DNA of 64,000 nt from an uncultured bacterium. GTDB taxonomy: Bacteria; Oederibacteriota; CAKKQC01. How positions within the stretch are numbered: position 1 is the stretch's first letter; every line of letters begins with the position of its first letter. The stretch covers positions 62-64,061 of the forward strand of contig CAYNUZ010000001.1 in the NCBI GenBank assembly GCA_964400385.1, read 5' to 3'. Positions 31,609 to 57,205 of this stretch are shown here, piece by piece. The translations under genes were made by a program, and so were the position numbers. The notes below the pieces were generated by a model that did not search any database, had not been told where the DNA came from, and saw only the letters and a list, made by a program, of their open reading frames with translations.

Positions 31609-33219
31609 ATGAAGCGGGCGATCGGGAAGACAGCGGCCGGCGTGGGCTGGGCCGTCCGGATCGCCGCGGGCGTAGCGCTGGCGGGCTGCCTCCTGCTGCT
31701 GCCCCTCATCATTCTCAATCTCACCCAGCACGGGCCGCTGGCGCGGCTCACGTTCCGGAAGGTGACCCAGCTCGGCTGGCTCCTGGGCGCGGTGTTCGTG
31801 CTGGCGCGGCCCCGGCCGGTGAAGTACTTCCGCGAGGTCGCACGCAAGGCCGCCCGGGTGCTCGGCCACCCCCGGGCCTTCCCGATCACGGCGGCGGCAA
31901 TGCTGGTGGTGATGGTGGGCGCGGCGCTCACCGAATACCTCTCGTTCAATGCGTGCTCGGACGACTTCGGGATGATGGACGAGCCGCTGGCCGGCCGGGG
32001 CGGCGGGCCGTTCATGTTCACCGCGGTGTTCGGATACGGGCTCCTCCAGCAGCACTTCTATCCCTCGATGGTCCTGCTGATGCCCCTGCGCCGGCTCGTG
32101 GACACCCCGCTCGTCACCGTGCTGGCCCAGGCCTTGTTGATGTGGGCGGCGGCCTTCCCGCTGCGGGCGCTGGTGCGGCGCAAGGGGCTCCCGGCGTGGC
32201 TCCCCGCCTTCGCCTGCCTCATCGTCTTGAACCACCCGATCGTGACCCGGTCGCTCATCTACCTCGTCCATCCCGAGACCGCCGAGCCCTTGCTGGTGCT
32301 CACCGCGCTGTGGGCGGTGCACACCCGCCGGACTCCCCTGTACTGCCTCGCGGTCGCGCTCCTGCTGGGCATCAAGGAAGACGTCGGGCTGTACATGGCG
32401 GGATTCGGAGTCTACCTCGCGGTGGCGCACGGCCGGTGGCGGCTGGGCGCGATCACCGCGGGCGTGGCGCTGGCGTGGCACGTCTTCGCGGTCCATGTCG
32501 GGATGCCGTACTTCGGCGCGGTGCCCGGCGAAGTCCGGTTCTTCGGGCGGTGGAGCCACTGGGGCGCGACCAATGCCGGCGTGCTGGTCGGGTGGGCCAC
32601 GCACCCGCTCGAGGTGCTCCGGATGCTCACCGGCAGCCAGCAGGTGCTCCTGTTCGCCGGCCTCGGCTTCCTGCCGTTCATCACGCCGTGGGGCTGGCTG
32701 GCGTTCGCGGCGCCGTGGCTGGTGAACGCCACCAGCGGGCTGGGGGTGCAGGCCACGTACGAGAACTACTACGGCATCCCGGTCGTGGCCTTTGCCCTGG
32801 CCGCGGCCGTGGACGGCGTGCGCAGTCCCGGCTTCAAGCGGCTGATGGCCAGCCCGCTGGCGCCCCTGGCGGCGGCCGTGGTGGCCTTCCTGAACATCGC
32901 GCACCAGCCCTTCGAGCCGATCCCCCGTAACCGGGCGGCGGTGCTGGCCGAGGTGGCGAAGGTGCCGCACGGGGAGCAGGTGCAGGTGATTCCCGCGCTG
33001 TATTCGTACGGCGGGTATTGGGAGGGCAAGACGCCCATCTCCTCGAGCCGCACTTTGCAGCGGCCGCTGGCGGACCGGTGGATCATCCTGCGCGACGGCC
33101 CGACCACCTGGCCGTACCAGCCGGGCGAGCCGACCCGCATCGCCCACCGGCTCATCGCATCGGGCCGGTACCGGGACCTCTCCACCACCCCCGGCGTCTT
33201 TATCCTGCGCCGGAAGTAG
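31609..33219 (+). CDS. Polytopic membrane protein, GT-C-like (resembles DUF2079 family of predicted membrane glycosyltransferases)
   Basis: 536 aa with at least 10 hydrophobic helices throughout the N-terminal 400 aa and a soluble C-terminal 100 aa. Overall organisation is like the DUF2079/GT-C families. The family assignment has not been verified. Confidence 0.45.
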   Translation: MKRAIGKTAAGVGWAVRIAAGVALAGCLLLLPLIILNLTQHGPLARLTFRKVTQLGWLLGAVFVLARPRPVKYFREVARKAARVLGHPRAFPITAAAMLVVMVGAALTEYLSFNACSDDFGMMDEPLAGRGGGPFMFTAVFGYGLLQQHFYPSMVLLMPLRRLVDTPLVTVLAQALLMWAAAFPLRALVRRKGLPAWLPAFACLIVLNHPIVTRSLIYLVHPETAEPLLVLTALWAVHTRRTPLYCLAVALLLGIKEDVGLYMAGFGVYLAVAHGRWRLGAITAGVALAWHVFAVHVGMPYFGAVPGEVRFFGRWSHWGATNAGVLVGWATHPLEVLRMLTGSQQVLLFAGLGFLPFITPWGWLAFAAPWLVNATSGLGVQATYENYYGIPVVAFALAAAVDGVRSPGFKRLMASPLAPLAAAVVAFLNIAHQPFEPIPRNRAAVLAEVAKVPHGEQVQVIPALYSYGGYWEGKTPISSSRTLQRPLADRWIILRDGPTTWPYQPGEPTRIAHRLIASGRYRDLSTTPGVFILRRK

Positions 33220-33246
33220 GGTTCCCGGCCGGCGGGGCCAGGCGGC

Positions 33247-35319
33247 TCAGTGTACGGGGATCGGCCCGAGAAACACGACCTTCCCGGGGAAAACCCGGAC
33301 CTGATCAAACGTAAGCCTGGGTTTCGTCAGGGCTTCGGGCGCGAAAATATCAAGGTTCGGCAAACGCCCGATCCACAATGACGGGATCCGGATATCCAGA
33401 AGGCCCCACCCTACCCCGGTCCACCAGAGCTGCAGACCGCCATGCCAATGCGCAAGGACCGCGCCCAATCGGAGCGGAACTCCCCACAGGCGGCCCGCAA
33501 GGACGATTCGGTCCTTTTCGAGGACCAGATGGGGATCACGCAGGCGTCCCAGGAGGGACCGCAGCGGCCGGGAGAAGATCCGCACCCCGGCAGCGTGCGG
33601 ATGGGCGCCCACGCCCCGGATCAACAGGTCGAGGTCCGCTTCGGCAATCGAGCCTCTCCCCACCCTGACCCGTTCCATCGTCCACCCGGTGGCCGACGCG
33701 CTGAGGCCGACCCTCTCCCGGACCCGGCCCAACCCCACCGCCAGGTCCGAGACCGGCAGGTCCAGGTCAACGCCGTCCGCGTGCAGGATCACGTGGGCGC
33801 GCTCGGCATTGAAGCCCGCGAGGAGGGTTCCGTCCCGCCACATTCCGAGTGACACCTCCAGCCGGGAAGCGCCCAGTTGCGACCTGAGCATCCCGGCAAG
33901 ATTCCTCCGGAGAAGCTCCCGATCATGGATCTCATTACGGCGCAGGAGCACCTCGGCCGACCCGTCCGCCAGCGGCCACCGCTGGAGCTCGCTATACAGG
34001 CGATCGGTCACGTGCGGCCGGGTGGACCGGGTGACCGCGAAGTCGGCCAGCCCCGGCCCCTCGTCCTGCGGCATGACGTGGACTCCGAGCCCCAGCCGGG
34101 CCAGCTCGAACTCGAAGGTGTGCTGGTTGAGGTCCGCCTCCTCGGCATTCACGACCAGCTCCGCGCCGGGCCACGCCCGGACGGCCAGCTCCTTGGCCAC
34201 CTCCGCGTGGGGCCACGCCGCGTCCGACGGCGGCGCCACCCGGACCGCGACCACCACGAACTGGACCGCGGCCAGCGCCGTCAGGCCCCACGCAGCCCAC
34301 CGCCGCCTCGCCGGGGCGGTGATCCACTGGACCGCCGCCCCCACCCCCACCAGGATGAAGGGCAGCGCCGGCATGAAGTACCGGGGCTGCTTGTTGCGCA
34401 GGAGGGTCACGATGACCAGCGGGACCACGACGGTCCACGCCCACCGGCGGGTCGCGGGCGCCCGCACCAACGCGACCGCCCCGGCCACCGCGAGCAGGAC
34501 CGCGGGCCACCCGATCATGGAGGGCAACGCGACCGGGTAGAACAGGATCGCGCCCCAGCTCGCCAGCGGCGCGTCCACGATGTCCGATCCCGTGTATGCC
34601 GCGTGGAAGAGGGCGTGCCGGAGGAAGTTGAAGTTCGGCAGGTACCACCCCGCGCACACCACGAATCCCAGCGCGACCGCCTTGGCGGCAACCCCCCGGC
34701 GTGCCCGGGCCCCGGCCCGGGAGCCGGCCAGGCTGAGCGCCAGCGGGGCGAGCGTGTAGAAGGGGAAGGTCCACTTGACCAGCATCCCCAGCCCGATCAG
34801 GACCCCGACCCCCACCCACCGGCGGCCGCGCCACGGCGACTCGCCCAGCGCCCACGCGGTGGCCGCGACCAGCGCCGCCAGCGGCATGTCGTACATGAAC
34901 TGGCGCGACTCCCGGGCGACCAGCGGCGCTCCCACCACCAGCGCCGCCCCGGCCAGCGCGGCCAGCCGATCGCCCCGGTGCACCGCCAGCCCCAGCCTGT
35001 AGGTGGCCGCGAGCAGGAGGAGCAGGAAGGGCAGCATGGCGGTGGTGAACCCGTCCGCGGTGTTGCCACACACGCCGCCCGCCGCCGCACCCACCAGCGC
35101 TACCAGCGGCGGGTAGTACCGGTGCTCGTCGGAGAAGTGCACCACCCGCTCCCGCCACGTCATCCGGCGGTAGTGCTCCGCGGAGGTCAGGTGGACCGAC
35201 TGGTCCCAGGCCTGCGGCCGGTGGTCGGCGCGCAACCACCAGAGGTCGGTCGCCACGGCCACCGCGCCCACGGCCACCAGCCCGAGCAGCGCGCGGGTAC
35301 GGGGGGTCATGCGGTTCAT
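33247..35319 (-). CDS. GT-C fold membrane glycosyltransferase (PMT_2/ArnT-like, GT39/GT83-type) with about 280-aa C-terminal soluble domain
   Basis: Within ORF 33247..35658 the ATG at 35319 (MNRMTPRTRALLGLVAVGAVAV...) lies 2 nt after the upstream gene's stop. The N-terminal 400 aa are polytopic with an acidic first-loop motif (WDQSVHLTSAEHY) and typical GT-C helices (KWTFPFYTLAPLALSLAG). The C-terminal domain is unassigned. Confidence 0.55.
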   Translation of the reverse strand: MNRMTPRTRALLGLVAVGAVAVATDLWWLRADHRPQAWDQSVHLTSAEHYRRMTWRERVVHFSDEHRYYPPLVALVGAAAGGVCGNTADGFTTAMLPFLLLLLAATYRLGLAVHRGDRLAALAGAALVVGAPLVARESRQFMYDMPLAALVAATAWALGESPWRGRRWVGVGVLIGLGMLVKWTFPFYTLAPLALSLAGSRAGARARRGVAAKAVALGFVVCAGWYLPNFNFLRHALFHAAYTGSDIVDAPLASWGAILFYPVALPSMIGWPAVLLAVAGAVALVRAPATRRWAWTVVVPLVIVTLLRNKQPRYFMPALPFILVGVGAAVQWITAPARRRWAAWGLTALAAVQFVVVAVRVAPPSDAAWPHAEVAKELAVRAWPGAELVVNAEEADLNQHTFEFELARLGLGVHVMPQDEGPGLADFAVTRSTRPHVTDRLYSELQRWPLADGSAEVLLRRNEIHDRELLRRNLAGMLRSQLGASRLEVSLGMWRDGTLLAGFNAERAHVILHADGVDLDLPVSDLAVGLGRVRERVGLSASATGWTMERVRVGRGSIAEADLDLLIRGVGAHPHAAGVRIFSRPLRSLLGRLRDPHLVLEKDRIVLAGRLWGVPLRLGAVLAHWHGGLQLWWTGVGWGLLDIRIPSLWIGRLPNLDIFAPEALTKPRLTFDQVRVFPGKVVFLGPIPVH

Positions 35320-35320
35320 C

Positions 35321-38101
35321 TTATGGAACGCCGGGCGCCGTGGGCCGGGTCCGGTCCTGCCGCAGCCGGTACGGCGTCCCGAACGTGTACCGGGGGTCCG
35401 GCGTCCGGGCCAGCCCCTCGCTGCGCTCGGGTCTGCCGAGGCCGGCCAGGCCCCCCACACCGCCACCCAGTGAGAACACCTCGAGCACCAACTCCTGGCG
35501 CTCCTGATGCTCGCGGGTGCGCACGTACCGTACCCCCACCGCGCCCTCGAGCAGCGACCCGAACTCAAAATTGCTGATCTTGACCTCCGCCAGCGCCTCC
35601 GCCCCGTACGCGTACTGGGTCCGCGCCGCGTCCCCCGCGGCCAGGTCGAAGAACGCACCCAGCGAGAGGTCCTCCAGGTACCCGCTGAACCACCAGATAC
35701 CCTCGCGCAGCGGGATGAGCGGCGCCGTGAAGTCGACGGCCGCCTCCGCGCCCCGCCCCGCGGCCAGCCCGTCCTGGTAGCCCCGGATGCGCGCGAAATC
35801 CGAGTCGGGGTTGTCCCGGTCAGCGAACCCCGCCCCCTGGACCAGCACCCGGCTCATATAGATGTATTGGTCCAGCACCCCCTGCCCGACCACCCCCGTG
35901 CGGTCCACGGCCGACCCCCAGCCCTGCCGCTCGAACGGCACACTCGCGCCCACCGAGAGCGCCGTCCCCGGCCACGAGAACGCCGTGAGCACATACGGAT
36001 CGCCTTCCCGCCGGTTCCGGTCGTCGAACGCGCCCGCGTGCGCGCCCACCGCCAGCTCCGAGAGCCCCGGCGAGAGCCGGAGCACCAGCGGGTACGCCAC
36101 CGCCCCGTCCCAGGACGGCGTGCCGAGGGTCGAGACCGAGGCGGCCGCCTCCAGGGGCGGCGCGGGGGTCCCCACCGCGCTCGCCGAGACCGCCGGCCGG
36201 TGGTCCCGGAAGTCCCACGCCGGGATGAGCGCGTAGTTGAAGACGTGCCCGATCGCGTCCGCACCCCCGAACGCAATGCCTGCGATCCGGCCATCCAGGC
36301 TGGCGAACGGCATGTGTAGCGCGGTGGGCGCAAGCGTCCGCAGATCATCCCCGAATCCGCCGCGCGCCACCCGCGTGCGGTCCACGGGAGCCACCGGCGG
36401 GGTGATCGGCCGATTGTCCGGCACCGCCACCGCCGCCGGGGTGCGCGGCTTGCGGTAGAGGTCGTTGCCCGCCGCGGTCAGCCCCACGTAGTAGAGGGTT
36501 CCGGCCGCGGCATCCACCGCCGGCCAGTTGGCATACCCGCCCCGGGTCAGCTCATAGACCGTCCCGCTCGCGGGATCCAACTCCTTGATGCCATAGCTCC
36601 CCTTCCAGTTCGCCATGAAGACCACCCGGTCCCCGACGAGCGCCGGGTGCGCCTCCACCCACGGCGTGTCGATCAATGGGGTGACGGTCCCCGTGGCAGG
36701 ATCCAGCCGGTACAGCGAGAACTGGCGCCAGTCCGGCCGCGCCGTCACCACCACCTGGTGGTCGTCGGCGGCGAACTCGTCCACCTGCATCGCCAGCGAG
36801 GCGAGCCGGGTGTGCTGCTGTGACGCCAGGTCGTAGGCGAAGAGGTCCGACCCGAATCCGTCGGTGCGGTCCACGGAGTACACCACCCGGCCGTCGGGCA
36901 GCACCCCGAACCCCCGGATCGGCCGCCGGAACAGCTCCCGGTCCCGCCCCGACGCCAGGTCGTGCGCGCGCACGATGCTGGTGAACCCGTACCCCAGTGA
37001 CGCGACGTTCGCGTGGCCGCCCTCGATCTCCGTGACGGCGTAGTACAGGACGCCCCCGCGCACCGCGAGCCCCGCATGGATCCCGGTGGTCGTCCCCACC
37101 AAGATCCGCTCCTCCCCGGTCCGGAGGTCCCGCGCCCAAATCTCATTGAAGGCATCCGCCGCGAACGCGCCGGTCTTCTGGACGTAGGACCGGACATAGA
37201 ACAGCGTGCCGCCGTCCACCGTGAGGCTCTCGATCGTCCAGCCGTGGGACGTCACCTTCTCCCCGTCCATCTTCCAGTCCTGGAACCGGCCCGAGCACGA
37301 CCGCGACCACGCGTACCAGAGGTCCGGGATGGACTTCCCGTAGACCTTCTCCGCCGCCAGATCAATGCCCCACCCCGGCACCAGCGGCGAGAGGTACGCC
37401 AGCAACGACCGGTCGTGCCGGTGGTAGAACGCGGCCAGCTTCTCCGGCCCGTAGGTCCTGGCCAGCCACCCCGTGAATTCGGCGCCCGCCAGGTAGTAGT
37501 AGTCCAGCGGATACGCCACCGGAGCGAAGGTCGCCTGCATGAGGTCGGGGAACTCCCCGTTGCGCAGCCCCGCTGCCAGGTACGCGTCGAAGAACCCGTC
37601 GTTCAGCCGGCCGCTGTACGGCGAGTACGAGGACTCCTCGTACACCGCCAGCCCCTCCGCCATCCACGGCGGCACCCACCAGCTCGGGTTGAGCAGCGAC
37701 CCACCGAACCACGCGATCCCCCCGGGAATCCCGCCCCGGTACGTGAGATGGAGCATGTGGGTGTACTCGTGGATCGTGAGCCCCGCCCACCAATTCTCCT
37801 CCGGCAACAGCCCCGCCCCCGGCGCCGAGGTGTACAAGTGGATGTTCATGTTGACCGGGTCTGTCCCGCCGTTCGAGATCGTGCCGGCCTCGTCAATCAC
37901 GATCGGCACCCGCTCCCGGTGGCTGTCCGTGAGCTTCTCCACCTGCGGCCGGGTCCACTCCAGCGCGTCCAGCGCGGCCCACGCCTCCGGCTCATGGCCG
38001 TCGGCATAGAACACCGTGAAGTGCTCGGTCTTGAGCGTCCGCCATCCCGCCGCGGCAGGAGCCGTCCAGCACAGCCACACTGCGAGCGCCAGCCGCTTCA
38101 A
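35321..38101 (-). CDS. Secreted zinc metalloprotease (HEXXH) fused to TolB-like (PD40) beta-propeller repeats and a beta-rich C-terminal domain
   Basis: HEYTH zincin motif (AGLTIHEYTHMLHL) about 120 aa after a signal-peptide-like segment (LKRLALAVWLCWTAPAAAGW). PD40-like blades (LFAYDLASQQHTRLASL, FSLYRLDPATGTVTPLID, GIKELDPASGTVYELTRGG). The C-terminal 300 aa have alternating hydrophobic residues. The start is probably TTG at about 38101, overlapping the upstream stop as TTGA; the 5' part of ORF 35321..38305 overlaps the upstream gene. Confidence 0.55.
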   Translation of the reverse strand: MKRLALAVWLCWTAPAAAGWRTLKTEHFTVFYADGHEPEAWAALDALEWTRPQVEKLTDSHRERVPIVIDEAGTISNGGTDPVNMNIHLYTSAPGAGLLPEENWWAGLTIHEYTHMLHLTYRGGIPGGIAWFGGSLLNPSWWVPPWMAEGLAVYEESSYSPYSGRLNDGFFDAYLAAGLRNGEFPDLMQATFAPVAYPLDYYYLAGAEFTGWLARTYGPEKLAAFYHRHDRSLLAYLSPLVPGWGIDLAAEKVYGKSIPDLWYAWSRSCSGRFQDWKMDGEKVTSHGWTIESLTVDGGTLFYVRSYVQKTGAFAADAFNEIWARDLRTGEERILVGTTTGIHAGLAVRGGVLYYAVTEIEGGHANVASLGYGFTSIVRAHDLASGRDRELFRRPIRGFGVLPDGRVVYSVDRTDGFGSDLFAYDLASQQHTRLASLAMQVDEFAADDHQVVVTARPDWRQFSLYRLDPATGTVTPLIDTPWVEAHPALVGDRVVFMANWKGSYGIKELDPASGTVYELTRGGYANWPAVDAAAGTLYYVGLTAAGNDLYRKPRTPAAVAVPDNRPITPPVAPVDRTRVARGGFGDDLRTLAPTALHMPFASLDGRIAGIAFGGADAIGHVFNYALIPAWDFRDHRPAVSASAVGTPAPPLEAAASVSTLGTPSWDGAVAYPLVLRLSPGLSELAVGAHAGAFDDRNRREGDPYVLTAFSWPGTALSVGASVPFERQGWGSAVDRTGVVGQGVLDQYIYMSRVLVQGAGFADRDNPDSDFARIRGYQDGLAAGRGAEAAVDFTAPLIPLREGIWWFSGYLEDLSLGAFFDLAAGDAARTQYAYGAEALAEVKISNFEFGSLLEGAVGVRYVRTREHQERQELVLEVFSLGGGVGGLAGLGRPERSEGLARTPDPRYTFGTPYRLRQDRTRPTAPGVP

Positions 38102-48330: not shown

Positions 48331-49758
48331 ATGCTGACGGCCCCGCTCCTCCTGGCCGTGGCCGGCTGGCTGACGTTCGGCCGGCTGCAGGGGCTGGTGA
48401 ACGGAAACCCCGACTCGCTGATCCCGGTCTTCGTGAGCCTCTGGAAGTGGACGCCCATGTATTGGGAGCAGGACCGGTACGGCATGCTCCTGCCCTTCCT
48501 GGCCCGGCCGCTGCACCACCCCCTGACCAACCTCCTCGCCCAGCAATTCGCGGCGGCGCTGCTTTCCGCCACGGCGTTCATTACCGTGCCGTGGTACCTC
48601 CTCGGCGGTGACCGGGGCCGCACCGCCGGGTGGGTCGCGCTCGGGATCTGCGTGGCGGGGACGCCCCTCCTGATCCAGTACGACGCCTTCGGGCTCGCCC
48701 AGCCGTACGGCGTCGCGCACGGACTGGCCGCGCTGGGATTGGTGGGTCTGACGGAGCTGCGGGCCGCCCGGCGGCCCTGGTGGGGCGGCGCCGCGGCCTT
48801 CGTCTTCCTGCCCCTGGCGATGTGGGTCAACGCCGCGATCGCCCCCGTGGTGCTGGCGCTCTTCCTGGGCCGGCAGTGGATCGTCCAGAAGCACTTCGAT
48901 GCCGGCAAGCTGGTTCGCCAGCCAGAGATCGCGCTCGTCGGGCTGGCGACGGCCGTGGGGCTGCGCATCGAGCATGTGCTCGGCCACCACAGCGGGTTCC
49001 AGCAGAAATACCTGCGGACGCCGGCCGCCCAGTGGCCCGCGGGATGGGTCGCGATGGCGCGCCATGCGGCGGACGCGTACGGCCCGGTGCTGTTCCTCAG
49101 TCTCGGGATCGTGGCCGGCATCGGGCTGGTCTGGAGTATCACCCGCACGCCGCGGCGGGATCCCGGCCCGGTCCGGGCTGCCCTGACCTGCCTGGGCGCC
49201 GGGGTCGCCTTGCTGCTGGCCTTCGGGACGCTCCAGCATGTGCAGAACAACGGGTACGCCGCCCGGTATGCGCTCACGCCGATGTTCCTGCTCATTGTCG
49301 CCACCGGCATCCTCGTCTCGAGTGTGCTCGGCCGGGCCACCCGCATCGCGGCACCGGCGCTGCTGCTGCTCGGGCTGGTCTGCCGCCATGGAGTTCCGAC
49401 CCCCGGAACACCGCGGGCCCTGATCTGCGTGCCGCCCGTCACCACCCGGGCCGAAGCCGTCCTGCACCTGGGCGCCACCCATGTGCTGGGCAGCTACTGG
49501 CACACGTGGCCGCTGGTTTTTCAGGCGAACCTGCTGAGCGTGGAGCGGGGCGGCACGGCTCCCATTTGGGGCCTCTCCGGCCGCAGCGTCCCCATCACTC
49601 CGCTCTGGCGCGCGCGTCCCCTGCGCGAGTGGCGCATCGCGACGGTGACCGGTGATCCCCAGCTCCCGTACTGGCGGTCCTTCTACAAGCTGCCCCGGCT
49701 GGTCCGGGTGGCGCAGGAAGGCGACGTCAACCTCTGGCGGGTCGCCGACCGGCCTTGA
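48331..49758 (+). CDS. Polytopic integral membrane protein, possibly GT-C-like; function unknown
   Basis: 475 aa, hydrophobic helices throughout; start 3 nt after the aminotransferase stop, so it is operonic. Confidence 0.4.
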   Translation: MLTAPLLLAVAGWLTFGRLQGLVNGNPDSLIPVFVSLWKWTPMYWEQDRYGMLLPFLARPLHHPLTNLLAQQFAAALLSATAFITVPWYLLGGDRGRTAGWVALGICVAGTPLLIQYDAFGLAQPYGVAHGLAALGLVGLTELRAARRPWWGGAAAFVFLPLAMWVNAAIAPVVLALFLGRQWIVQKHFDAGKLVRQPEIALVGLATAVGLRIEHVLGHHSGFQQKYLRTPAAQWPAGWVAMARHAADAYGPVLFLSLGIVAGIGLVWSITRTPRRDPGPVRAALTCLGAGVALLLAFGTLQHVQNNGYAARYALTPMFLLIVATGILVSSVLGRATRIAAPALLLLGLVCRHGVPTPGTPRALICVPPVTTRAEAVLHLGATHVLGSYWHTWPLVFQANLLSVERGGTAPIWGLSGRSVPITPLWRARPLREWRIATVTGDPQLPYWRSFYKLPRLVRVAQEGDVNLWRVADRP

Positions 49759-49776: not shown

Positions 49777-51264
49777 TTGTATCGTGATGGCATGAGACGC
49801 CCACCGGCCTCGCGCGTTCCGTCGGTCGGCTGGCTGGTGGCGGCGCATGTGGCGCTGGCCGCGGCGTGGGGGGTGGCGGTGCCGTCGTTCGAGAAGCCGG
49901 ACGAGCCCGGCCACTTCGAGGTCGCCCGGTTCCTCGTGACCCACCACCGGCTCCCCCGGCCGCTCCCCGCCGGGAAGGGGGTCGAGTGCCCGTGGGAGTT
50001 CCACCACCCGCCGCTGTACCACGCGCTGGCCGGGACGCTGCTGGCGGCGGTGGACCCCACGTTCGGCGGCGAGCTGCGCACCGACCTGCTGCGCAACACC
50101 TTCTACGCCCGCAAGGAGGAGGCGCGGCGCGCGGCCGCCCGGCCGGCCGTGCCGCGGCTGAACCTGCGCGGCCCGCTCTTCGGCGGGCCCGAGGCCGGGT
50201 TCTTCCGCCGCGACCCGCGGGACACCTTCCCGTGGGCGCCGCCGTACCGGGGCGTGCGGCTCCTGCGGCTGGCCGGGCTGGCGGTGGGCGCGCTGACCGT
50301 GCTGGCGGTGGCCCGGCTCGCAGCGGTCGTGCTGGGCGAAGGACCCTGGGCCTTTGCCGCCACCGCGTTCGTGGCTCTCAATCCACAAGTCTGCTTCCTG
50401 ATGACCTCGATCTCCAACGACGGGCTGGCGGCGCTGCTGGGCGCGCTGGTGACGCTGGCCGCGATCCGGATTGCCCGCCGTGACGACCGGTGCGCCGGGT
50501 CGCCCTTGGCCGTGGCGGGCCTGGGACTCGCGCTGGGGCTGGCGCTGCTGACCCGGATGACGCTGCTCGCCCTCGTCCCGTTCACCGTCGCGTGCCTCTG
50601 GGTAGCGTCCCGCCGCGACCGGAGCACGTTCGTCCGCCTGGCGCTCGGCTGCTGCGGTGTCGCCGGCGCGGTGGCGGGCTGGTGGTTCGTCCGAAACACG
50701 GTGGTCTACGGCGACCCGCTCGCGCAGGCCGCGTGCCTCGTGGCCAACGCGGGCCTGACCACCCACCGGTGGATCGGCTCCCGGTTCTTCTGGCTCCCCC
50801 GCGAGGACGGGTTCGTCTCCCGCACGTTCCAGTCGTACTGGGGCTTCTTCGGTTGGATGAGCCTCCCCCAGAGCCGGCGCATCGCCGTGCAGCTCGCGGT
50901 CGTCTGTGTCACGGGCGCCGCGGGTGCGATGGCCTCATGGCGGTCGGCCCGTCATTCGCGGAGTGCAGCCACCACCCGGGACCGGACCACCCTCGCCCTG
51001 CTCGCCTTCCACATCGCCCTGTCCATCGCGCTGGTGGTGAACCTGAACCTCACCTACACCTCGCCCCAGGGCCGGTACCTCTTCGGCTCGCTGGGGCCGG
51101 TGTCCATCCTGGTCGTCCTGGGGCTGCGCCACTGGTCTACCCGCCTCGGCTGGCGCCGACCGGGGATTGCAGCCGCCTGGTCGCTCCCTGCCTACCTGCT
51201 CGTGGTCAATGCAGTGGATCTGGTCGGGATCCTGCACTTCTACGCAACTTCCAGCTCTAGCTGA
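49777..51264 (+). CDS. ArnT/PMT-like GT-C membrane glycosyltransferase (GT83/GT39-type)
   Basis: First periplasmic loop motif FEKPDEPGHFEVARFL (the acidic DE motif of ArnT/PMT enzymes); PPLYH; 11-13 predicted TM helices. Confidence 0.6.
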   Translation: MYRDGMRRPPASRVPSVGWLVAAHVALAAAWGVAVPSFEKPDEPGHFEVARFLVTHHRLPRPLPAGKGVECPWEFHHPPLYHALAGTLLAAVDPTFGGELRTDLLRNTFYARKEEARRAAARPAVPRLNLRGPLFGGPEAGFFRRDPRDTFPWAPPYRGVRLLRLAGLAVGALTVLAVARLAAVVLGEGPWAFAATAFVALNPQVCFLMTSISNDGLAALLGALVTLAAIRIARRDDRCAGSPLAVAGLGLALGLALLTRMTLLALVPFTVACLWVASRRDRSTFVRLALGCCGVAGAVAGWWFVRNTVVYGDPLAQAACLVANAGLTTHRWIGSRFFWLPREDGFVSRTFQSYWGFFGWMSLPQSRRIAVQLAVVCVTGAAGAMASWRSARHSRSAATTRDRTTLALLAFHIALSIALVVNLNLTYTSPQGRYLFGSLGPVSILVVLGLRHWSTRLGWRRPGIAAAWSLPAYLLVVNAVDLVGILHFYATSSSS

Positions 51265-51276
51265 TCTTCGCCCTCG

Positions 51277-52212: not shown

Positions 52213-52533
52213 TGGGGTGTTGAATGAGAAGGGACGTATTTGAATAACTTGATAAGTGTCACTTCATAGCCAGGTCGGTTGAGGTTTGCGTAGTTCCGCA
52301 TCGATGGAGCCGCTACGAAATGCGTGAGAAGGAAGATGGATCGCATACTCATTTCTATCCCCCATATTTGATCACACCGAGTGAGAGCAAGGTCGACTCG
52401 GCCGATCGTATTGCGCCGTTCAAATGACAATGGGAGCAGGCCTCGGTGATTTCTCCTTGAAGGCTCGGACCTTCGCGCGTTTTGGATCTAGTCAGGGAAC
52501 ATTTTGATCCGATTCCACGGTTAGAATAGACCA
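52213..52533. promoter_or_regulatory. About 320-nt AT-rich intergenic region upstream of dsbD (promoter / possible small RNA)
   Basis: About 48% GC versus about 68% background; contains only a short, probably spurious ORF (52191..52430). Confidence 0.25.
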
Positions 52534-54555
52534 ATGCTCGCCCTCCTCCTGCTCCTTGCCCAATCTCTGTCCGCCGCCCCGGTGCGGGCGCCGCACATCG
52601 CGGCGGAGCTGGTGGCGGAGGCGGGGTCAGTCAAACCCGGCTCCGTGACATGGGTGGGTGTGCGGCTGGTGATGGAGCACGGGTGGCACGTGTACTGGCG
52701 CAACCCCGGCGACTCCGGGGTTCCGCCGGCGATCGAGTGGTCACTGCCCGCGGGGTTCACCGCGGGCGAAGTCCACTGGCCCCGCCCCGACCGGATCCAG
52801 GAAGGGCCGCTGGTCAGCTACGGGTACCACGACGCGCTCCTGTTGATGGTCCCTCTCACCGCCCCGGCCACGCTGCCCGCGGGCGAGCGGGTGATCCTCA
52901 AGGCCGCCGTGAATTGGCTGGTGTGTAAGGACACCTGCATCCCGGGCCGCGCGGGGCTGGTGCTCGACCTGCCCGCCGGCAGCGGGGCGCCGGGGGCGCA
53001 CGCCGCCGAGTTCAAGCGCACCCGGGCGCTCGTGCCGGAGCCCGTGCCGCCGGAGTGGATGGTCGCCGCCACCGCGCAGGAAAAGACCCTCACGCTCTCC
53101 TTCTCCGGCGTGGGCACCGCGCTGCGCGCACCGGTGCAGTTCTTCCCGTTGAACCCCAACGAGGTGGACAACCCCGCGCCGCAGGCGCTGGCGTGGGGGC
53201 CGGGCGGCGCGCACCTCATGCTGGTGAAGTCGGACCAGTTGCTCAAGCTTCCCGCGGTGCTGGATGGCGTGCTGGTGGCGGGCGGGCACGCGTGGGAGCT
53301 GCACGCGCCCCTGCCGGTCACTGCGGCGCCCGCCGGGCTGGCGCTGTGGTGGGCACTGGTGCTGGCGTTCGCCGGGGGCATGATCCTCAACCTGATGCCG
53401 TGCGTCTTCCCGGTGCTCTCGATCAAGGTGCTCGGGTTCGTCCGCGAATCCATGCACCACCCGCACGAGGTCAAGATCCACGGATTGCTGTACGGCGCCG
53501 GGGTCGTGGCCTCGTTCTGGGCGCTGGCCGGCGCGCTGGCGGTGCTGAAGGCCGGCGGCGAGCACCTGGGATGGGGCTTCCAGCTCCAGTCGCCCGCCGT
53601 CATCATCGTGCTGGCCGCGGTCCTCTTCCTGATCGCGCTCAACCTCTTCGGCGTCTTTGAGGCGGGCACCTCGGTGATGCGCACCGCCGGATCGTTCTCG
53701 TGGGGCGAGGGGCGGACCGCGGCGTTCTTCACCGGCGTGCTGGCCACCTTCCTCGCCACGCCGTGCACTGCGCCGTTCATGGGCACCGCCGTGGGGTACG
53801 CCGCTACGCAGCCGGTGCACTCGAGCTTCCTGGTCTTCACCGCGCTGGCTTTGGGCATGGCCGCCCCGTACGTCGGGCTCTCCTTCGCCCCGCACCTCGG
53901 CCGGCTCCTCCCCCGCCCCGGCCGGTGGATGGAGACGTTCAAGCACCTGATGGCCTTCCCGCTGATGGCCACGGTGATCTGGCTGCTGTGGGTCCTGGGG
54001 CTCCAGGCCGGGCTGGCGGCGGTGATCCGCGCAATGGCCACGATGCTGGCGGTGGCGTTCGCCGGGTGGCTGTACGGCCGGTGGCACACCGGGGTGATGC
54101 GCGCGGTGGCCGGAGCCATCATCGGCGGGGCGTGCATCGTCGCGGTCTCCGGTGTGCGCGACCTGGCGGTGTCCAATGCCCGGGACCGCGACGGCGAATG
54201 GGAGCGGTGGTCGCAGGCCCGGCAGGACAAGGCGCTGGCCAAGGGGTCGCCGGTGTTCGTGGACTACACCGCGGCGTGGTGCCTGACCTGCAAAGTGAAC
54301 GAGGCGGTGGCGCTGGGGACCACCGACGTGCGCCGGGCGCTCAAGGCGCACGGGGTGCTGCTGCTGCGGGCGGACTGGACCAACCCGGACCGGGAGATCG
54401 AGCGGGCGCTGGCGTCGTTCGGCCGCAACGGGGTGCCCCTGTACGTGCTGTATCCCGGGGGACGGTCGGCGGCGCCGCGGATCCTGCCGCAGATCCTGAC
54501 CCCCCGGATGGTGCTGGACGAACTGGACAAGCTGGGCGGGGCCGCCGCGCCGTGA
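52534..54555 (+). CDS. dsbD: Thiol:disulfide interchange protein DsbD (N-terminal DsbD-alpha, CcdA-like TM core, C-terminal thioredoxin domain)
   Basis: Signal peptide, periplasmic N-domain (WHVYWRNPGDSGVPPAIEW, VCKDTCIP), TM core with paired Cys (LNLMPCVFPVLSIKV, TPCTAPFMGTAVG), C-terminal TAAWCLTCK thioredoxin motif. Confidence 0.85.
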   Translation: MLALLLLLAQSLSAAPVRAPHIAAELVAEAGSVKPGSVTWVGVRLVMEHGWHVYWRNPGDSGVPPAIEWSLPAGFTAGEVHWPRPDRIQEGPLVSYGYHDALLLMVPLTAPATLPAGERVILKAAVNWLVCKDTCIPGRAGLVLDLPAGSGAPGAHAAEFKRTRALVPEPVPPEWMVAATAQEKTLTLSFSGVGTALRAPVQFFPLNPNEVDNPAPQALAWGPGGAHLMLVKSDQLLKLPAVLDGVLVAGGHAWELHAPLPVTAAPAGLALWWALVLAFAGGMILNLMPCVFPVLSIKVLGFVRESMHHPHEVKIHGLLYGAGVVASFWALAGALAVLKAGGEHLGWGFQLQSPAVIIVLAAVLFLIALNLFGVFEAGTSVMRTAGSFSWGEGRTAAFFTGVLATFLATPCTAPFMGTAVGYAATQPVHSSFLVFTALALGMAAPYVGLSFAPHLGRLLPRPGRWMETFKHLMAFPLMATVIWLLWVLGLQAGLAAVIRAMATMLAVAFAGWLYGRWHTGVMRAVAGAIIGGACIVAVSGVRDLAVSNARDRDGEWERWSQARQDKALAKGSPVFVDYTAAWCLTCKVNEAVALGTTDVRRALKAHGVLLLRADWTNPDREIERALASFGRNGVPLYVLYPGGRSAAPRILPQILTPRMVLDELDKLGGAAAP

Positions 54556-54595
54556 CACTTTTGCGGCCGGGCCCCGTCCAACGGGTAAGAATAGT

Positions 54596-55261
54596 ATGGA
54601 AAGGCCGCATGACTACCGCTGCAAGGAGGCTCCCGTGACCATCCCGATGCTCCCCCGCCTTCGTTCCGCCGCCCTCGCGGCGCTCTGCCTGTTTACCGCC
54701 GGGTCCGCGCTGGCCGTCAAGATCGGGGCCATCGCCCCGGACTTCACCGCCCAGGACCTGGACGGCAAGACCGTGAACCTCAAGGCGCTGCGCGGCAAGT
54801 ACGTGGTGCTGGAGTGGCACAACAAGGGGTGCCCGTTCGTGGTGAAGCACTACGGGTCCGGCAATCTCCAGGCGCTCCAGGCGAAGTGGACGGGCAAGGG
54901 CGTGGCCTGGCTGTCCATCGTCTCGTCGGGCGAGGGCAAGCAGGGGTTCGTGACGCCCGAGGAGGCCCGGGCCGACGTGGCCGACACCCATTCCGCGGTG
55001 ACGGCGATGGTGCTCGACAAGGACGCCCGGATCGCGAAGCTGTACAGCGCCAAGTGCACGCCGCACATGTTCGTGATTGATCCCAAGGGCCGGCTGATCT
55101 ACAACGGCGCGCTCGACGACCACGCCACGGCCGACCCCGCCGACATCCCGGGGTCGCTCAACTACGTGGACCAGGCGCTCGCCGAGTCGCTCGCCGGCAA
55201 GCGGGTCTCGGTCCCGACCACCAGACCGTATGGGTGCGGGATCAAGTACCCGAAGGACTGA
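54596..55261 (+). CDS. Secreted thioredoxin-fold protein (redoxin/peroxiredoxin-like)
   Basis: Signal peptide MLPRLRSAALAALCLFTAGSALA; active-site region YVVLEWHNKGCPFV with a second Cys (AKCTPHMFVIDPKG). The real start is probably 54635 (GTG) or 54647 (ATG). Confidence 0.65.
   Translation: MERPHDYRCKEAPVTIPMLPRLRSAALAALCLFTAGSALAVKIGAIAPDFTAQDLDGKTVNLKALRGKYVVLEWHNKGCPFVVKHYGSGNLQALQAKWTGKGVAWLSIVSSGEGKQGFVTPEEARADVADTHSAVTAMVLDKDARIAKLYSAKCTPHMFVIDPKGRLIYNGALDDHATADPADIPGSLNYVDQALAESLAGKRVSVPTTRPYGCGIKYPKD
54624..54629 (+). promoter_or_regulatory. Shine-Dalgarno-like AGGAGG upstream of the thioredoxin-fold gene (GTG 54635 or ATG 54647)
   Basis: aaggaggctcccgtgacc: AGGAGG sits 5 nt before the GTG. 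Confidence 0.35.
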
Positions 55262-55290
55262 CCCGACGCACCACGCCGTAGAATAGGGGC

Positions 55291-56439
55291 GTGCCCCGCC
55301 CCTGGCTCGCGGCCGGCCTGATCGCCTGCGCCGCGGCGGCCGCGGCGGTTCCGGTCCCGCCGTTCCAGGTCGTCAAGCACCTCTCGCTGGAAACCCGCAC
55401 GACCGCGCCCTCGTTCGTCTGCCTGGATGGCATCACGCTGCTGGACCGGGGCCGGCTCCTGCACATCGGCCGGCCCCTCGAGGACCGGAGCGTGCTGCGG
55501 GTGCTGGATCTCGCGTCGCTCCAGATCCACGACCTGCGGGTGCCCGGCATTCCCGGCCCGATGAGCGTACCCCCGAAGCAGCTGGCCGTGGACAAGCCCC
55601 TTTATTACGACACCGCCAACGGCACCGCGGGCATCCTGCTGCGCGGCGGGGCCAGCGTGAGCGGTGACGCGGCCTACGCGGAGTGGGATCTGGGGACCAA
55701 CCGGGTGGTCCGGACGCTGCCGCTGGCGCCGGGGGCGGGTGCGTACTGGACCTCCGTCAACGCCATCGGGTACGACCCCGGCCGCCGGGAGGCGTACGTG
55801 GAAGTGGTGCGGTGCCGGGGCGGCGGCAACCTGCCGTGCAAGCCGGGCGGGCCGTTCGACTGGGCGGTCCTCGCGGTGACAGACCGGGTGCGCACCGTCG
55901 CGACGTGGACCGGGCCGCTCAAGCCCACCCAGAAGGAGCCGTACTACGACCCGATCCACCACCGGTCCATGCACATCGAGTACGCCGAGTGCGGGGCCGA
56001 GCAGACGACGGCCCACCTCGTGGACCTCGACGCGGGGACGGTGAAGCCCGTCGCCCTCCCCCGGGTGATCTACGGGTTCGCGTTCGATCCGGACGGCCGG
56101 ACGGGATACGTGTACTCCTACACGACCCGGCAGGTCTTCGCGCTGGACCTGGAGACCGGCCGGATCGGCCGCCGCGCGACGTTCGGGAACGTCGGCCACC
56201 TGCTCGAGTTCGTGGCCCCGGGGACCCTCCTGCTGGGCCGCGACCCGGGGATGCACTTCATTGACGCGCGGACCCTGCGCGAGACGGGATTCCTCCCGAC
56301 CGCGGCGTTCCACCGGGGTTCGCCCCACCTGGAGGGGTCGGTGTTCATGCCCGGCCGCGCCATCGTCCGGAACTATTCCGATCTCTACGTGATCGACTTG
56401 CCCGGTCTCGCACCGCCCACGGAGTCCCCCTCCCGGTAG
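55291..56439 (+). CDS. Hypothetical secreted protein (signal peptide; beta-rich)
   Basis: GTG start per ORF track; N-terminal AAGLIACAAAAAAV signal; no catalytic motif recognised. Confidence 0.45.
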   Translation: MPRPWLAAGLIACAAAAAAVPVPPFQVVKHLSLETRTTAPSFVCLDGITLLDRGRLLHIGRPLEDRSVLRVLDLASLQIHDLRVPGIPGPMSVPPKQLAVDKPLYYDTANGTAGILLRGGASVSGDAAYAEWDLGTNRVVRTLPLAPGAGAYWTSVNAIGYDPGRREAYVEVVRCRGGGNLPCKPGGPFDWAVLAVTDRVRTVATWTGPLKPTQKEPYYDPIHHRSMHIEYAECGAEQTTAHLVDLDAGTVKPVALPRVIYGFAFDPDGRTGYVYSYTTRQVFALDLETGRIGRRATFGNVGHLLEFVAPGTLLLGRDPGMHFIDARTLRETGFLPTAAFHRGSPHLEGSVFMPGRAIVRNYSDLYVIDLPGLAPPTESPSR

Positions 56440-56464
56440 GCTACGCCTGTGCTAACCTCAGACA

Positions 56465-57205
56465 ATGGTTCAGGGCAAGAAAGTCATCGTAGTGCTGCCC
56501 GCGTACCGGGCGGAGCTGACCGTGGAGCGGACCGTCAAGGAGGTCCCCCCCGGGTGCGTGGACGAGTTCATCCTGGTGGACGACGCGAGCCCGGATGCGA
56601 CGCTGGCGGTCGCGCGGCGGCTGGGGCTCACCAGCATCGCCCACGAGCGCAACCTCGGGTACGGCGGCAACCAGAAGACCTGCTACCGCAACGCGCTGGA
56701 CCACGGAGCGGAGATCGTCATCATGCTCCACCCGGACTACCAGTACGACCCCAAGCTGGTGCCGGTCCTTGCAGAGATGGTCGCCTCCGGCATCTACGAC
56801 ATCGTGCTCGCGTCCCGGATCCTGGGCAACGGCGCGCTGGACGGGGGCATGCCGAAGTACAAGTACTTCGCCAACCGCGCCCTCACCTTCTTCGAGAACC
56901 TGATGCTCCACCAGAAGCTGAGCGAGTACCACACCGGATACCGGGCCTTCAGCCGGCGGGCGCTGGAGGCGGTGAACTGGCGGGACAACTCGGACGACTT
57001 CGTCTTCGACAACCAGATCATCGTCCAGATGCACATGGCGGGGCTGCGGTTCGGGGAAATCACCTGCCCCACGAAGTACTTCAAGGAGGCTTCGTCCATC
57101 AACTTCCGCCGGAGTGTCCAGTACGGGTTCGGCGTGCTGTCCTGCGCCCTCGCCTACCGCCTCCACAAGATGGGGCTCATCCGCAGCAAGCTCTTCGCGC
57201 GCTGA
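56465..57205 (+). CDS. GT2-family polyprenol-phosphate glycosyltransferase (DPM1/Ppm1/ArnC-like)
   Basis: KVIVVLPAYRAE, ILVDDASPDAT (DxD), LHPDYQYDP; about 246 aa soluble GT-A, typical of dolichol/undecaprenol-phosphate sugar synthases. Confidence 0.8.
   Translation: MVQGKKVIVVLPAYRAELTVERTVKEVPPGCVDEFILVDDASPDATLAVARRLGLTSIAHERNLGYGGNQKTCYRNALDHGAEIVIMLHPDYQYDPKLVPVLAEMVASGIYDIVLASRILGNGALDGGMPKYKYFANRALTFFENLMLHQKLSEYHTGYRAFSRRALEAVNWRDNSDDFVFDNQIIVQMHMAGLRFGEITCPTKYFKEASSINFRRSVQYGFGVLSCALAYRLHKMGLIRSKLFAR

Follow-up and report, generated by a model that had tools for sequence, protein, structure and literature searches.

Three-component periplasmic glycosylation systems, such as GtrA/GtrB/Gtr*, the GT136 pentofuranose system of Citrobacter and CsbB/GtcA/YfhO of Gram-positive bacteria, represent an established mechanism, and multi-GT-C loci were already on record (PMC11127046). 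We analysed a 64,000-nucleotide stretch of DNA (the window) from an uncultivated high-GC bacterium, in which a span of ~26 kb encodes seven GT-C membrane glycosyltransferases from distinct families (Table 1). The locus has a candidate GT2 polyprenyl-phosphate-sugar synthase and putatively extracytoplasmic GT-Cs in common with the three-component systems, but it differs in that no flippase is present in the window, only one GT2 accompanies the seven unrelated GT-Cs and lacks syntenic conservation, and biosynthesis genes for the modified polymer are absent. In mycobacterial arabinan and mannan assembly (EmbA/B/C, AftA-D, MptA-C, PimE, and GalN addition by PpgS-Rv3779) many GT-Cs build a glycan, as they may do here, although there is no sequence-level orthology and the host of this locus is a diderm with T9SS-type cargo and no DprE/phosphoribosyl pathway genes at the locus.

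Other described systems modify proteins or lipid A. In actinobacterial protein O-mannosylation by Pmt/Ppm1 (GT39) the polyprenyl-P-Man synthesized by a GT2 serves as the donor from which a GT-C glycosylates secreted proteins, a logic the locus could share, whereas its proteins fall below the PF02366 threshold and none carries PMT_4TMC (PF16192, no match in any protein by Pfam). The ArnBCADTEF pathway (GT83) likewise combines a DegT-type aminotransferase, a GT2 and PMT_2-type GT-Cs, but the proteins of the locus score far below all Arn equivalog cut-offs, and ArnA, ArnD and ArnE/F are missing from the window, as is any dehydratase. Finally, human TMEM260 (GT117) is an O-mannosyltransferase for IPT domains; its activity needs D52, H67, Y267 and D441, with R264 and R355 as donor contacts (bioRxiv 10.64898/2026.03.17.711096).

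Table 1. Features of the GT-C span and its surroundings, in window coordinates. GA, gathering cut-off (26.1 bits for PMT_2, PF13231).
Feature	Coordinates	Strand	Evidence
Truncated GT-C (5' part), PMT_2-like	1..484	-	PMT_2 E=3.3e-5, below GA; ADEP after first TM
Giant proteins 2639-21199 (giant1) and 25422-31355 (giant2), three small secreted proteins	2639..31355	-	Context
DUF2079-family GT-C	31609..33219	+	PF09852 E=3e-32
PMT_2-type GT-C	33247..35319	-	PF13231 27.9 bits, above GA
Secreted HExxH protein, family unassigned	35321..38107	-	HEYTH motif, signal-peptide-like N-terminus
Bacterial TMEM260 homolog (DUF2723, CAZy GT117)	38098..39867	-	PF11028 E=6e-13, 49.4 bits vs cut-off 24.2
Secreted DUF1349 (ConA-like) lectin-like protein, T9SS type-A-like tail	39902..42184	-	DUF1349 6e-9, Por_Secre_tail 2e-3
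GT-C with invariant GDGxGYY first-loop motif	42317..44236	-	PMT_2 E=2e-3, below GA
PMT_2/TMEM260-related GT-C, TDESLH motif	44242..46170	-	PMT_2 E=9e-5, below GA
Class I SAM methyltransferase	46167..47105	-	Methyltransf_23 E=1e-31
DegT/DnrJ/EryC1 sugar aminotransferase	47138..48328	+	PF01041 E=3e-113
GT-C of a family without a Pfam model	48331..49758	+	No Pfam match
DUF2142-family GT-C	49777..51264	+	PF09913 E=1.7e-8; weak PMT 6e-4
DsbD, periplasmic AhpC/TSA-fold thiol oxidoreductase, secreted 382-aa protein	52534..56439	+	Pfam
Soluble GT2, candidate polyprenyl-phosphate-sugar synthase	56465..57205	+	Glycos_transf_2 E=3e-19

The seven GT-C genes had been proposed, with these coordinates, by an earlier reading made from the sequence only, and both held in Pfam searches and in structure and profile comparisons. 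The polytopic candidates match solved GT-C enzyme structures and are GT-C glycosyltransferases rather than transporters; structure settled the assignment of the two with the weakest Pfam support, while sequence searches of the PDB with the 33247, 44242, 49777 and 31609 proteins returned nothing useful. Most candidates have an acidic motif in their first periplasmic loop (ADEP, WDQS, FEDTGE, GDGVGYY, TDESLH, NPDS and PDEPGH), and the first-loop aspartate is invariant within the 48331 (D28), 42317 (D53) and DUF2723 (D37) families. In the DUF2079 protein no such motif was identified on sequence inspection. The enzymes can be called paralogous at the clan level only: in all-versus-all BLASTP no pair reached E<0.05, which rules out a recent paralog expansion. 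No protein reaches the thresholds for GT39 PMT (PF02366), ArnT or ArnC; the DUF2142 protein comes closest to PF02366, with 19.9 bits where 22.7 are needed. By a rough estimate, the chance of finding at least seven GT-C genes in 26 kb would be P ~2e-9 even with 30 such genes spread across 4 Mb.

The genes are tightly packed, as the sequence-only reading had noted. The methyltransferase and its neighbouring GT-C gene overlap by 4 nt, the start of the HExxH gene overlaps the stop of the DUF2723 gene, the HExxH and PMT_2-type genes are separated by 1 nt, and the DegT and 48331 genes by 2 nt. The minus-strand run holds four GT-Cs with two secreted-protein genes interleaved, and GT-C genes are found on both flanks of the giant-protein block. 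GC3 is 0.90–0.96 for most GT-Cs and drops to 0.68 in the 42317 gene. A recent horizontal acquisition of the low-GC3 genes at 39902–44236 was considered and not upheld, since they are conserved in two related contigs (L007 and L088).

Individually, the GT-Cs differ in their accessory regions and arrangement. The protein assigned to DUF2079, in agreement with the sequence-only reading, has at least seven hydrophobic segments and a weak match to an NCBIfam family annotated 'cell surface glycopolymer formation'; its gene is convergent with 33247–35319 and divergent from giant2. The product of 33247–35319 carries a C-terminal soluble region of ~320 aa and unassigned fold, and that of 42317–44236 ends in a β-sandwich domain matching carbohydrate-binding modules. 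The 44242–46170 protein is related to the TMEM260-family profile (hhalign 88% probability, E=3e-6). The membrane protein encoded at 48331–49758, proposed earlier as GT-C-like, is indeed a GT-C; the large family to which it belongs comprises 739 representative clusters and was modelled with high confidence.

The 38098–39867 product is a true TMEM260 homolog, as had been claimed; for no other GT-C of the locus is there a specific relative that is known to act on protein. It aligns with human TMEM260 (PDB 9rql) over residues 15–439 (~425 residues) with E=7.3e-20 alone and 3e-85 when the family profile is used, and its D37, H52, Y241 and D391 align with D52, H67, Y267 and D441 of the human enzyme. 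By contrast, the mannose contact R355 is replaced by P316, and R264 corresponds to A238, beside K239. The C-terminus of the DUF2723 family profile is TPR-like, matching TPR proteins at ~1e-9, but the protein is much shorter than human TMEM260 at this end, with ~150 residues beyond the aligned region and no Pfam TPR match. Its donor would be a bacterial polyprenyl-P-sugar. Neither the full nor the core pattern of the TMEM260 acceptor sequon (P-x5-P-x3-G-P-x2-G/A-G-G-x2-T/S) occurs in the 24 window proteins, both giants included. The literature searched reports no function for bacterial TMEM260/DUF2723 proteins. A profile search with a four-sequence DUF2723 alignment found three genome loci only. 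Homologs at 35–38% identity adjoin truB/ribF outside any GT-C cluster in L002 and, by analogy, probably in L003 too.

On the donor side, the sequence-only reading had described a DPM1/ArnC-like GT2, an ArnB-type aminotransferase and a sugar-type methyltransferase, and in each case the general class stood. The GT2 resembles DPM1, AglJ and PpgS: among NCBIfam models it scores best, though always below curated cut-offs, with AglJ, dolichyl-P-hexose transferase and PpgS, and its best PDB match is Pyrococcus DPMS (5mlz, 3e-7), whereas the ArnC model gives 18 bits against 529. The gene lies 8 kb away and is followed by a HicAB pair. The aminotransferase is a clear DegT protein, but it does not reach the cut-off of the PseC, WecE or ArnB model (ArnB 202 bits against 631); its gene is divergent from the methyltransferase gene. 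For the methyltransferase, a generic class I SAM enzyme, the best NCBIfam matches are the DVU_1556 family and UbiG, and no sugar-specific assignment could be made. The polytopic proteins in the window comprise the GT-Cs and DsbD only, and no flippase of the GtrA, SMR, MATE or Wzx type was found in it, intergenic gaps included (the largest in the span is at most 364 nt). The window also encodes neither an initiating phosphoglycosyltransferase nor a Wzx/Wzy/ABC exporter, and cytoplasmic GT4/GT1 genes are likewise missing from it.

Among the secreted neighbours, the 35321–38107 protein had been proposed as a protease-propeller fusion; it has the motif and N-terminus listed in Table 1, but no Pfam or NCBIfam match that would support the propeller. 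In the lectin-like protein the sorting domain (TIGR04183/PF18962) scores 17.6 bits against a cut-off of 23, and its final 100 aa are similar to the C-terminal end of a protein that depends on T9SS (8.6e-9). Serine and threonine make up 21% of its residues, and it has 8 D-(S/T)-(A/I/L/V/M/T) sites against ~3.6 expected. The DsbD/thioredoxin pair was found as predicted. The giant block contains PQQ_2, fn3, Big_13, FlgD_ig, Kelch and NHL domains. Described earlier as Ser/Thr/Gly-rich, the giants are only moderately rich in serine and threonine (17% and 14%), with no mucin-like runs and no Ser/Thr-rich linkers, and D-[ST]-[AILVMT] sites are not enriched in them (23 in giant1 against ~25 expected by composition, an estimate, and 2 in giant2). 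They are not close mutual relatives, sharing only a ~190-aa C-terminal module; a FlgD_ig-like domain is followed in both by a 70–90 aa Gly/Ser tail, and hence is not terminal. The longest ORF of giant1 has no obvious N-terminal signal peptide. GC3 is 0.74–0.78 for the giants and 0.59–0.78 over the whole block with its small secreted proteins. Both giants lie outside the two multi-GT-C gene runs, and an oppositely oriented gene cuts giant2 off from the main run.

The lineage is poorly sampled, and synteny therefore rests on four short contigs (L006, L007, L088 and L002). The backbone kept in related contigs consists of the 44242–46170 GT-C and the methyltransferase, the divergent DegT, DsbD and thioredoxin genes, and the lectin-like protein with the T9SS tail. 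Orthologs of the GT-C are 45% (L007) and 38% (L088) identical, the methyltransferase is 81–83% identical in L006 and L007, and the 52534–56439 genes are collinear there at 66–82% identity, neighbouring DegT. Copies of the lectin-like protein, 56–74% identical, lie downstream of GT-Cs in L007 and L088. Around this backbone the content varies, the other GT-Cs and the GT2 being insertions. Neither the 48331 nor the 49777 gene occurs in L006 and L007, whose DegT and DsbD genes have no copy of the latter between them; the 42317 gene is missing from L007 too, as is a GT2 at the syntenic position, and L006 instead carries a DUF2079-like gene at the junction between methyltransferase and DegT. In L088 a block of two GT-Cs and the lectin-like protein is followed by regulators, with no stretch from DUF2723 to the giant genes, so that conservation of the locus together with these genes, on which the sequence-only reading in part depended, is not kept there. 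Variable gene content is typical of surface-glycan loci.

Some of the families also recur together further afield. In the unrelated sediment contig L008, a stretch of 14 kb encodes homologs of three of the seven (phmmer 1e-54 and 2e-64; tblastn 33% identity), among them that of 33247–35319 (2e-64), which adjoins the other two; L008 also has a fourth gene that is likely to encode a GT-C, with the motif QDESMH, and a member of the GT9 heptosyltransferase family. In L089 a TMEM260-like gene is located inside a Wzy_C/GT4/Bac_transf operon, and a DUF2142 GT-C lies close by. For 48331-family genes (34 loci, distant members), the Pfam families seen most often in the 122 immediate neighbours are GT4/GT1 (9), GT2 (9) and methyltransferases (8–9).

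We read the span as a mosaic, variable polyprenyl-phosphate-sugar/GT-C envelope glycosylation island, possibly with one protein O-glycosyltransferase, an interpretation to which we give an even chance. Cytoplasmic nucleotide sugars would be made, one of them being aminated by the DegT enzyme, and the SAM methyltransferase would methylate some pathway component. The DPM1/PpgS-like GT2, or synthases encoded elsewhere, would load a sugar onto polyprenyl phosphate, the lipid-linked sugars would be flipped by a flippase encoded outside the window, and on the periplasmic side a growing surface glycoconjugate would be extended by seven different GT-Cs, each supplying a sugar in a linkage of its own. 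Sequence cannot by itself choose between the giant proteins and a surface polysaccharide as the target, and most clues point to a glycan. Most of the GT-Cs probably act on one (a polysaccharide or LPS-type polymer, or else the sugar portion of a glycoconjugate), because the C-terminal domain of the 42317–44236 protein is CBM-like, because GT4/GT1, GT2 and methyltransferase genes are commonest beside 48331-family genes, and because DUF2142 proteins occur in streptococcal cell-wall polysaccharide loci (PMC9746298). In this scheme the TMEM260-like enzyme may initiate such a glycan on Ser/Thr of secreted proteins. The incomplete donor pathway, which has no dehydratase, the distant, non-conserved GT2, the origin of the neighbourhood evidence in distant family members, and the absence from the window of flippase, initiating-enzyme, exporter and cytoplasmic GT genes that would show which polymer is decorated count against the island. 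For part of the locus, moreover, a protein acceptor accounts no less well for the TMEM260 homology and for the secreted-protein genes among the GT-Cs.

That the locus is a dedicated, O-mannosylation-like protein O-glycosylation module, with GT-Cs specific for substrates or linkages on the giants and other secreted proteins, seems rather unlikely to us. The GT-Cs, GT2, DegT, TMEM260 homolog and interleaved secreted proteins that such a module would use are all there, but its link to the giants is adjacency only. The GT-C genes do flank the giant block, and 3 of 6 independent DUF2723-family loci have a gene for an adhesin-like protein of at least 1300 aa no farther than 8 kb away, compared with 2 of 34 control loci (Fisher p=0.018, a small sample). 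The giants themselves, however, lack Ser/Thr-rich linkers, the IPT sequon and site enrichment, differ in codon usage from most GT-Cs, lose synteny in L088, and comprise one protein with no obvious signal peptide and one encoded divergently behind a plus-strand gene. Glycan-acceptor hints on the other GT-Cs, the failure of every protein to reach the GT39 threshold, the proline in place of R355 and the DUF2723 homologs beside truB/ribF also argue against the module. In its favour are the TMEM260 homology with its four conserved catalytic equivalents, the two secreted-protein genes in the GT-C run with their overlapping or 1-nt junctions, and the lectin-like protein kept downstream of GT-Cs in two relatives. 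That the TMEM260-like enzyme is a periplasmic protein O-hexosyltransferase starting glycans on secreted or T9SS-type proteins, giant adhesin-like ones included, with neighbouring GT-Cs extending the glycans extracytoplasmically, is a tentative proposal that we hold to be fairly unlikely. Quite doubtful, too, is the idea that a recombination-prone region gathered GT-C genes that act independently, with the giants adjacent by accident. The lack of pairwise similarity, the gain and loss of single GT-C genes between relatives, the mixed codon usage, and the Y1 transposase-like gene and HicAB pair suit it, but the overlaps and translational coupling in two multi-GT-C runs do not, and the joint recurrence of three GT-C families in L008 and of DUF2723 with DUF2142 in L089 suggests that the enzymes cooperate. 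An ArnT-like amino-sugar modification of lipid A or LPS core through DegT and the GT2 is very unlikely: although ArnB-, ArnC- and ArnT-like folds occur together and L008 pairs homologous GT-Cs with a gene of the LPS-core-associated GT9 family, the Arn model scores are poor or, for ArnT, nil, the remaining Arn genes are absent from the window, and seven different GT-Cs far exceed what lipid A modification needs.

The general mechanism of the proposed envelope glycosylation island is already known, and the specific substrate claim is unproven. If the enzymes cooperate, bacteria beyond Actinobacteria would assemble or diversify a surface glycan largely extracytoplasmically with many GT-Cs; if the O-hexosyltransferase reading is true, GT-C-driven protein O-glycosylation would occur outside Actinobacteria. 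In the general O-glycosylation of Bacteroidota-related bacteria the enzyme linking mannose to Ser/Thr has yet to be identified (review PMC12871550), and on that reading the TMEM260-like GT-C would, speculatively, bear on it. The locus offers two handles, the large 48331 family and a bacterial homolog of TMEM260 that retains the human enzyme's catalytic residues, and the question of a protein or glycan acceptor here would be informative for the whole bacterial TMEM260/DUF2723 family.

The window also contains a Y1 transposase-like gene, and the truncated GT-C gene at 1–484, which runs off the window, has a PRMT-like methyltransferase gene 2 nt upstream of it.

Coding ORFs were selected from the six-frame list by their Pfam and NCBIfam matches and by third-position GC (GC3), and the resulting gene map is compiled in the table below. 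The G+C content of the window is high (55–74%), and its sequence is identical to part of a 64,222-bp metagenome-assembled NCBI contig as well as to a Logan contig of run SRR12313479. Because the contig is metagenome-assembled and the nearest genome matches, obtained for one window protein, are groundwater MAGs (one labelled Candidatus Coatesbacteria, 47% identity), the source organism is uncultivated and poorly sampled.

Genes of the window, with positions in nucleotides; GT-C genes are named in the text by their first window coordinate
Feature	Position	Strand	Remark
Methyltransferase	47105-46167	minus	first gene of the minus-strand run, in transcription order
GT-C (44242)	46170-44242	minus	4-nt overlap with methyltransferase
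GT-C (42317)	44236-42317	minus	third in run
Secreted DUF1349/T9SS-tail (lectin-CTD) protein	42184-39902	minus	fourth in run
TMEM260-like GT-C	39867-38098	minus	fifth in run
HExxH protein	~38107-35321	minus	overlaps TMEM260-like gene
PMT_2 GT-C	35319-33247	minus	starts 1 nt after HExxH gene
DegT	47138-48328	plus	
GT-C (48331)	48331-49758	plus	no Pfam match
DUF2142 GT-C (49777)	49777-51264	plus	
DsbD, thioredoxin-fold protein, 382-aa secreted protein, GT2	52534-57205	plus	in this order
HicA/HicB-like toxin-antitoxin pair	57338-57756	minus	after GT2
DUF2079	31609-33219	plus	between minus-strand GT-C run and giant2
Giant2	31355-25422	minus	
Three small secreted proteins			downstream of giant2, before giant1
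Giant1	21199-2639	minus	
Y1_Tnp (IS200-like) domain protein, C-terminal HTH	1479-2507	minus	beyond giant1, before PRMT-like gene
PRMT-like SAM methyltransferase	487-1785	minus	PRMT_C oligomerisation subdomain E=4e-9, PrmA 6e-9
Truncated GT-C (start of gene)	484-1		minus strand; starts 2 nt past PRMT-like gene end

The membrane proteins of this cluster are GT-C glycosyltransferases. Four of them (DUF2079, PMT_2 at 33247-35319, the TMEM260-like protein and DUF2142) score above curated Pfam thresholds, and three further proteins match PMT_2 below threshold. The 42317-44236 protein has 22 homologs, two of which are annotated PMT_2, and for the 44242-46170 protein an alignment to the profile of the TMEM260 family reaches 88% probability. 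No Pfam domain was detected on the 48331-49758 protein or on any of 40 sampled homologs; its family, with members in soil and sediment metagenomes, comprises 739 representative homologs or clusters in which D28, W45, R312, Y389 and other residues are invariant (alignment A3), and the AlphaFold model computed from the family alignment has a pLDDT of 93.5. The cluster in this way reveals a GT-C family that lacks a Pfam model. An acidic motif lies in the first loop after TM1 in most candidates, and in each of the three families aligned the acidic residue does not vary; inspection of the DUF2079 sequence identified no such motif. Pfam matches, profile alignment, structure model and first-loop motifs together bear out the GT-C assignment of the sequence-only reading, and the proteins are therefore not something else, such as transporters. 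That reading had also called the enzymes paralogous, which they are not in the usual sense: no pair among the seven reached E<0.05 by BLASTP, and a profile-versus-profile comparison of two of the families gave only 73% probability. By curated thresholds, none of the proteins is a GT39 PMT, ArnT or ArnC. Seven GT-C genes in 26 kb lie far beyond chance (~2e-9 under a generous random-placement model); the cluster is real and stands out both statistically and by its unusual composition.

Among the enzymes of the locus, the TMEM260-like protein, a member of DUF2723 (PF11028), is alone in having a specific relative with an established protein-glycosylating activity. On its own the 589-aa protein matches the human TMEM260 structure (9rql) over residues 15–439 with E=7.3e-20, and the family profile does so with E=3e-85. 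Residues shown to matter in human TMEM260 (bioRxiv 10.64898/2026.03.17.711096) were mapped through a HMMER alignment. Human D52, H67, Y267 and the catalytic base of the luminal domain, D441, are conserved as D37, H52, Y241 and D391, respectively. The position of R264 is shifted, with A238 beside K239, and the mannose-contacting R355 is replaced by P316, which is also Pro in the closest homolog and Arg in two 35%-identical homologs. By fold the bacterial homolog is a TMEM260-family member; its key residues are a probable match and make it look catalytically intact, and the proline at 316 may reflect the use of another donor sugar. The PNAS paper defining TMEM260 mentions 'distant homologs in bacteria' (PMC10214176); functional work on such homologs was not found in a literature search. 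None of the window proteins contains the acceptor sequon of the human enzyme.

The nearest matches of the soluble, 246-aa GT2 are AglJ, dolichyl-phosphate hexose transferase, PpgS and Pyrococcus dolichol-phosphate mannose synthase, which fits, but does not prove, its candidacy as a polyprenyl-phosphate-sugar synthase. DegT is a sugar 4-aminotransferase-type enzyme scoring under the PseC, WecE and ArnB cut-offs, and the methyltransferase previously taken as sugar-type turned out to be a generic class I enzyme. Genes for a flippase, a dehydratase, ArnA/D, an initiating transferase or an exporter are missing from the window. Methyltransf_23-type SAM methyltransferases recur as neighbours of GT-C genes from different families, or share a 4-nt overlap with them, as in the window (46167-47105 / 44242-46170) and, with a TMEM260-like gene and a 4-nt overlap, in L092 (5663-8334); methyltransferases make up 8–9 of the 122 neighbours of the 48331 family (loci L008-L087). 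DegT genes near such GT-Cs were also seen in L094, L012 and L062.

Related contigs share a conserved backbone. DegT has three close relatives at 75–80% identity. To the left of the methyltransferase–DegT junction, contig L007 carries the methyltransferase (81%), followed in transcription order by a 44242-type GT-C (45%) and the lectin-CTD protein (61%), and to the right DegT (76%), DsbD (76%), the thioredoxin-fold protein (81%), the 382-aa protein (66%) and a HicB-like region. Contig L006 has a DUF2079-like gene (27%) nearest the junction and the methyltransferase (83%) beyond it on one side, with DegT, DsbD and the thioredoxin-fold gene on the other, so that the junction can host another GT-C family. 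In L088, which shares its source sample with L006, a 44242-type GT-C (38%), a 42317-type GT-C (47%) and the lectin-CTD protein (56–74%) are followed by response regulators and histidine kinases. GT-Cs 48331 and 49777 and the minus-strand 311-aa gene, which lie between DegT and DsbD in the window only (compared with L006 and L007), are insertions or deletions, as are GT2 and, in L007, the 42317 GT-C. A lack of conservation of the locus together with the giant genes, which would count against the sequence-only reading, was found in part: L088 does not run on into the TMEM260-like and giant genes, and in L002 the DUF2723 homologs (35–38% identity) form a tandem pair adjoining truB and ribF, all within short contigs. 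A second DUF2723 copy also appears to be present in L003.

The two giants are built of β-propellers (PQQ_2, Kelch, NHL) and Ig-like or fn3 domains, and have in common only a C-terminal module of ~190 aa (30% identity; 2639-3200 and 25422-26000), in which a FlgD_ig-like domain precedes a Gly/Ser-rich stretch of 70–90 aa with His/Asn/Lys at the end. This module may act as a signal, unlike the canonical T9SS tail, for sorting or anchoring. Ser and Thr account for 17% and 14% of giant1 and giant2, without long Ser/Thr runs in either, and the longest giant1 ORF has no obvious signal peptide. GC3 is 0.74–0.78 in the giants, 0.59–0.67 in the genes for the three small secreted proteins that separate them and 0.90–0.96 in most GT-C genes. 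Low GC3 (0.59–0.78) spans 2639-31355, 39902-44236 and 51277-52212, covering the secreted and giant genes and one GT-C, as against 0.90–0.96 in the other genes; the genes at 39902-44236 are nevertheless kept in relatives.

With about even confidence, we regard the locus, in the best-supported reading, as a variable envelope-glycosylation island that assembles a glycan, most of its enzymes probably acting on glycan. In 34 metagenome loci, the genes directly beside 48331-family members are chiefly GT4/GT1, GT2 and methyltransferases; three of the seven GT-Cs have homologs within 14 kb of an unrelated sediment contig (L008, 1-13645), together with a GT9 gene and a fourth likely GT-C (a membrane protein of 558 aa whose first loop bears QDESMH); in L089 a TMEM260-like gene lies within a Wzy_C/GT4/Bac_transf operon, beside CARDB proteins and a DUF2142 GT-C; and streptococcal rhamnose-polysaccharide loci contain DUF2142 proteins (PMC9746298). 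All of these point to glycan. Protein acceptors are indicated by the TMEM260 homology, the interleaving of secreted-protein genes with GT-Cs and the conserved lectin-CTD neighbour. A small-sample enrichment points the same way: very large secreted adhesin-like proteins are encoded <3 kb from TMEM260-like genes in L002 (1501 aa, FlgD_ig), L090 (1805 aa, PD40/TSP_3) and L091 (discoidin domains, at least 1399 aa), so that three of the six independent DUF2723-family loci have such a neighbour, compared with 2 of the 34 controls (Fisher p=0.018). The dedicated O-glycosylation module for the giants proposed by the sequence-only reading is unlikely. The mechanism class is already known, and the specific claim that the GT-Cs glycosylate the giants comes down to an adjacency not preserved in the available relatives.

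The glycan-assembling island would resemble mycobacterial extracytoplasmic arabinan and mannan assembly in its many GT-Cs. Its mode of action would parallel that of three-component periplasmic glycosylation systems (PMC11127046), of which the locus is not a complete example because the window has no flippase. Nor does it belong to GT39 PMT or the Arn pathway; Arn-like modification of lipid A/LPS is highly improbable. That the GT-C genes have no joint function, as their variable presence might suggest, is decidedly unlikely. A bacterial TMEM260-type protein O-glycosylation pathway is an unlikely reading. The mannose-attaching enzyme of Bacteroidota-type O-glycosylation is still undiscovered (PMC12871550), and such a pathway, if true, may speculatively bear on it.

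Several further features were observed. The L008 cluster, from an unrelated organism and the second with multiple GT-Cs, adjoins a histidine kinase and a sigma-54 response regulator. The order DegT, DsbD, AhpC/TSA thioredoxin-fold protein, 382-aa secreted protein (47138-56439) is kept in L006 and L007 at 66–82% identity, and the constant placement of a sugar aminotransferase beside a periplasmic reductant pathway is a puzzling conserved pairing. Also odd is the coupling of a protein-arginine-methyltransferase-like enzyme to a GT-C at the window edge.
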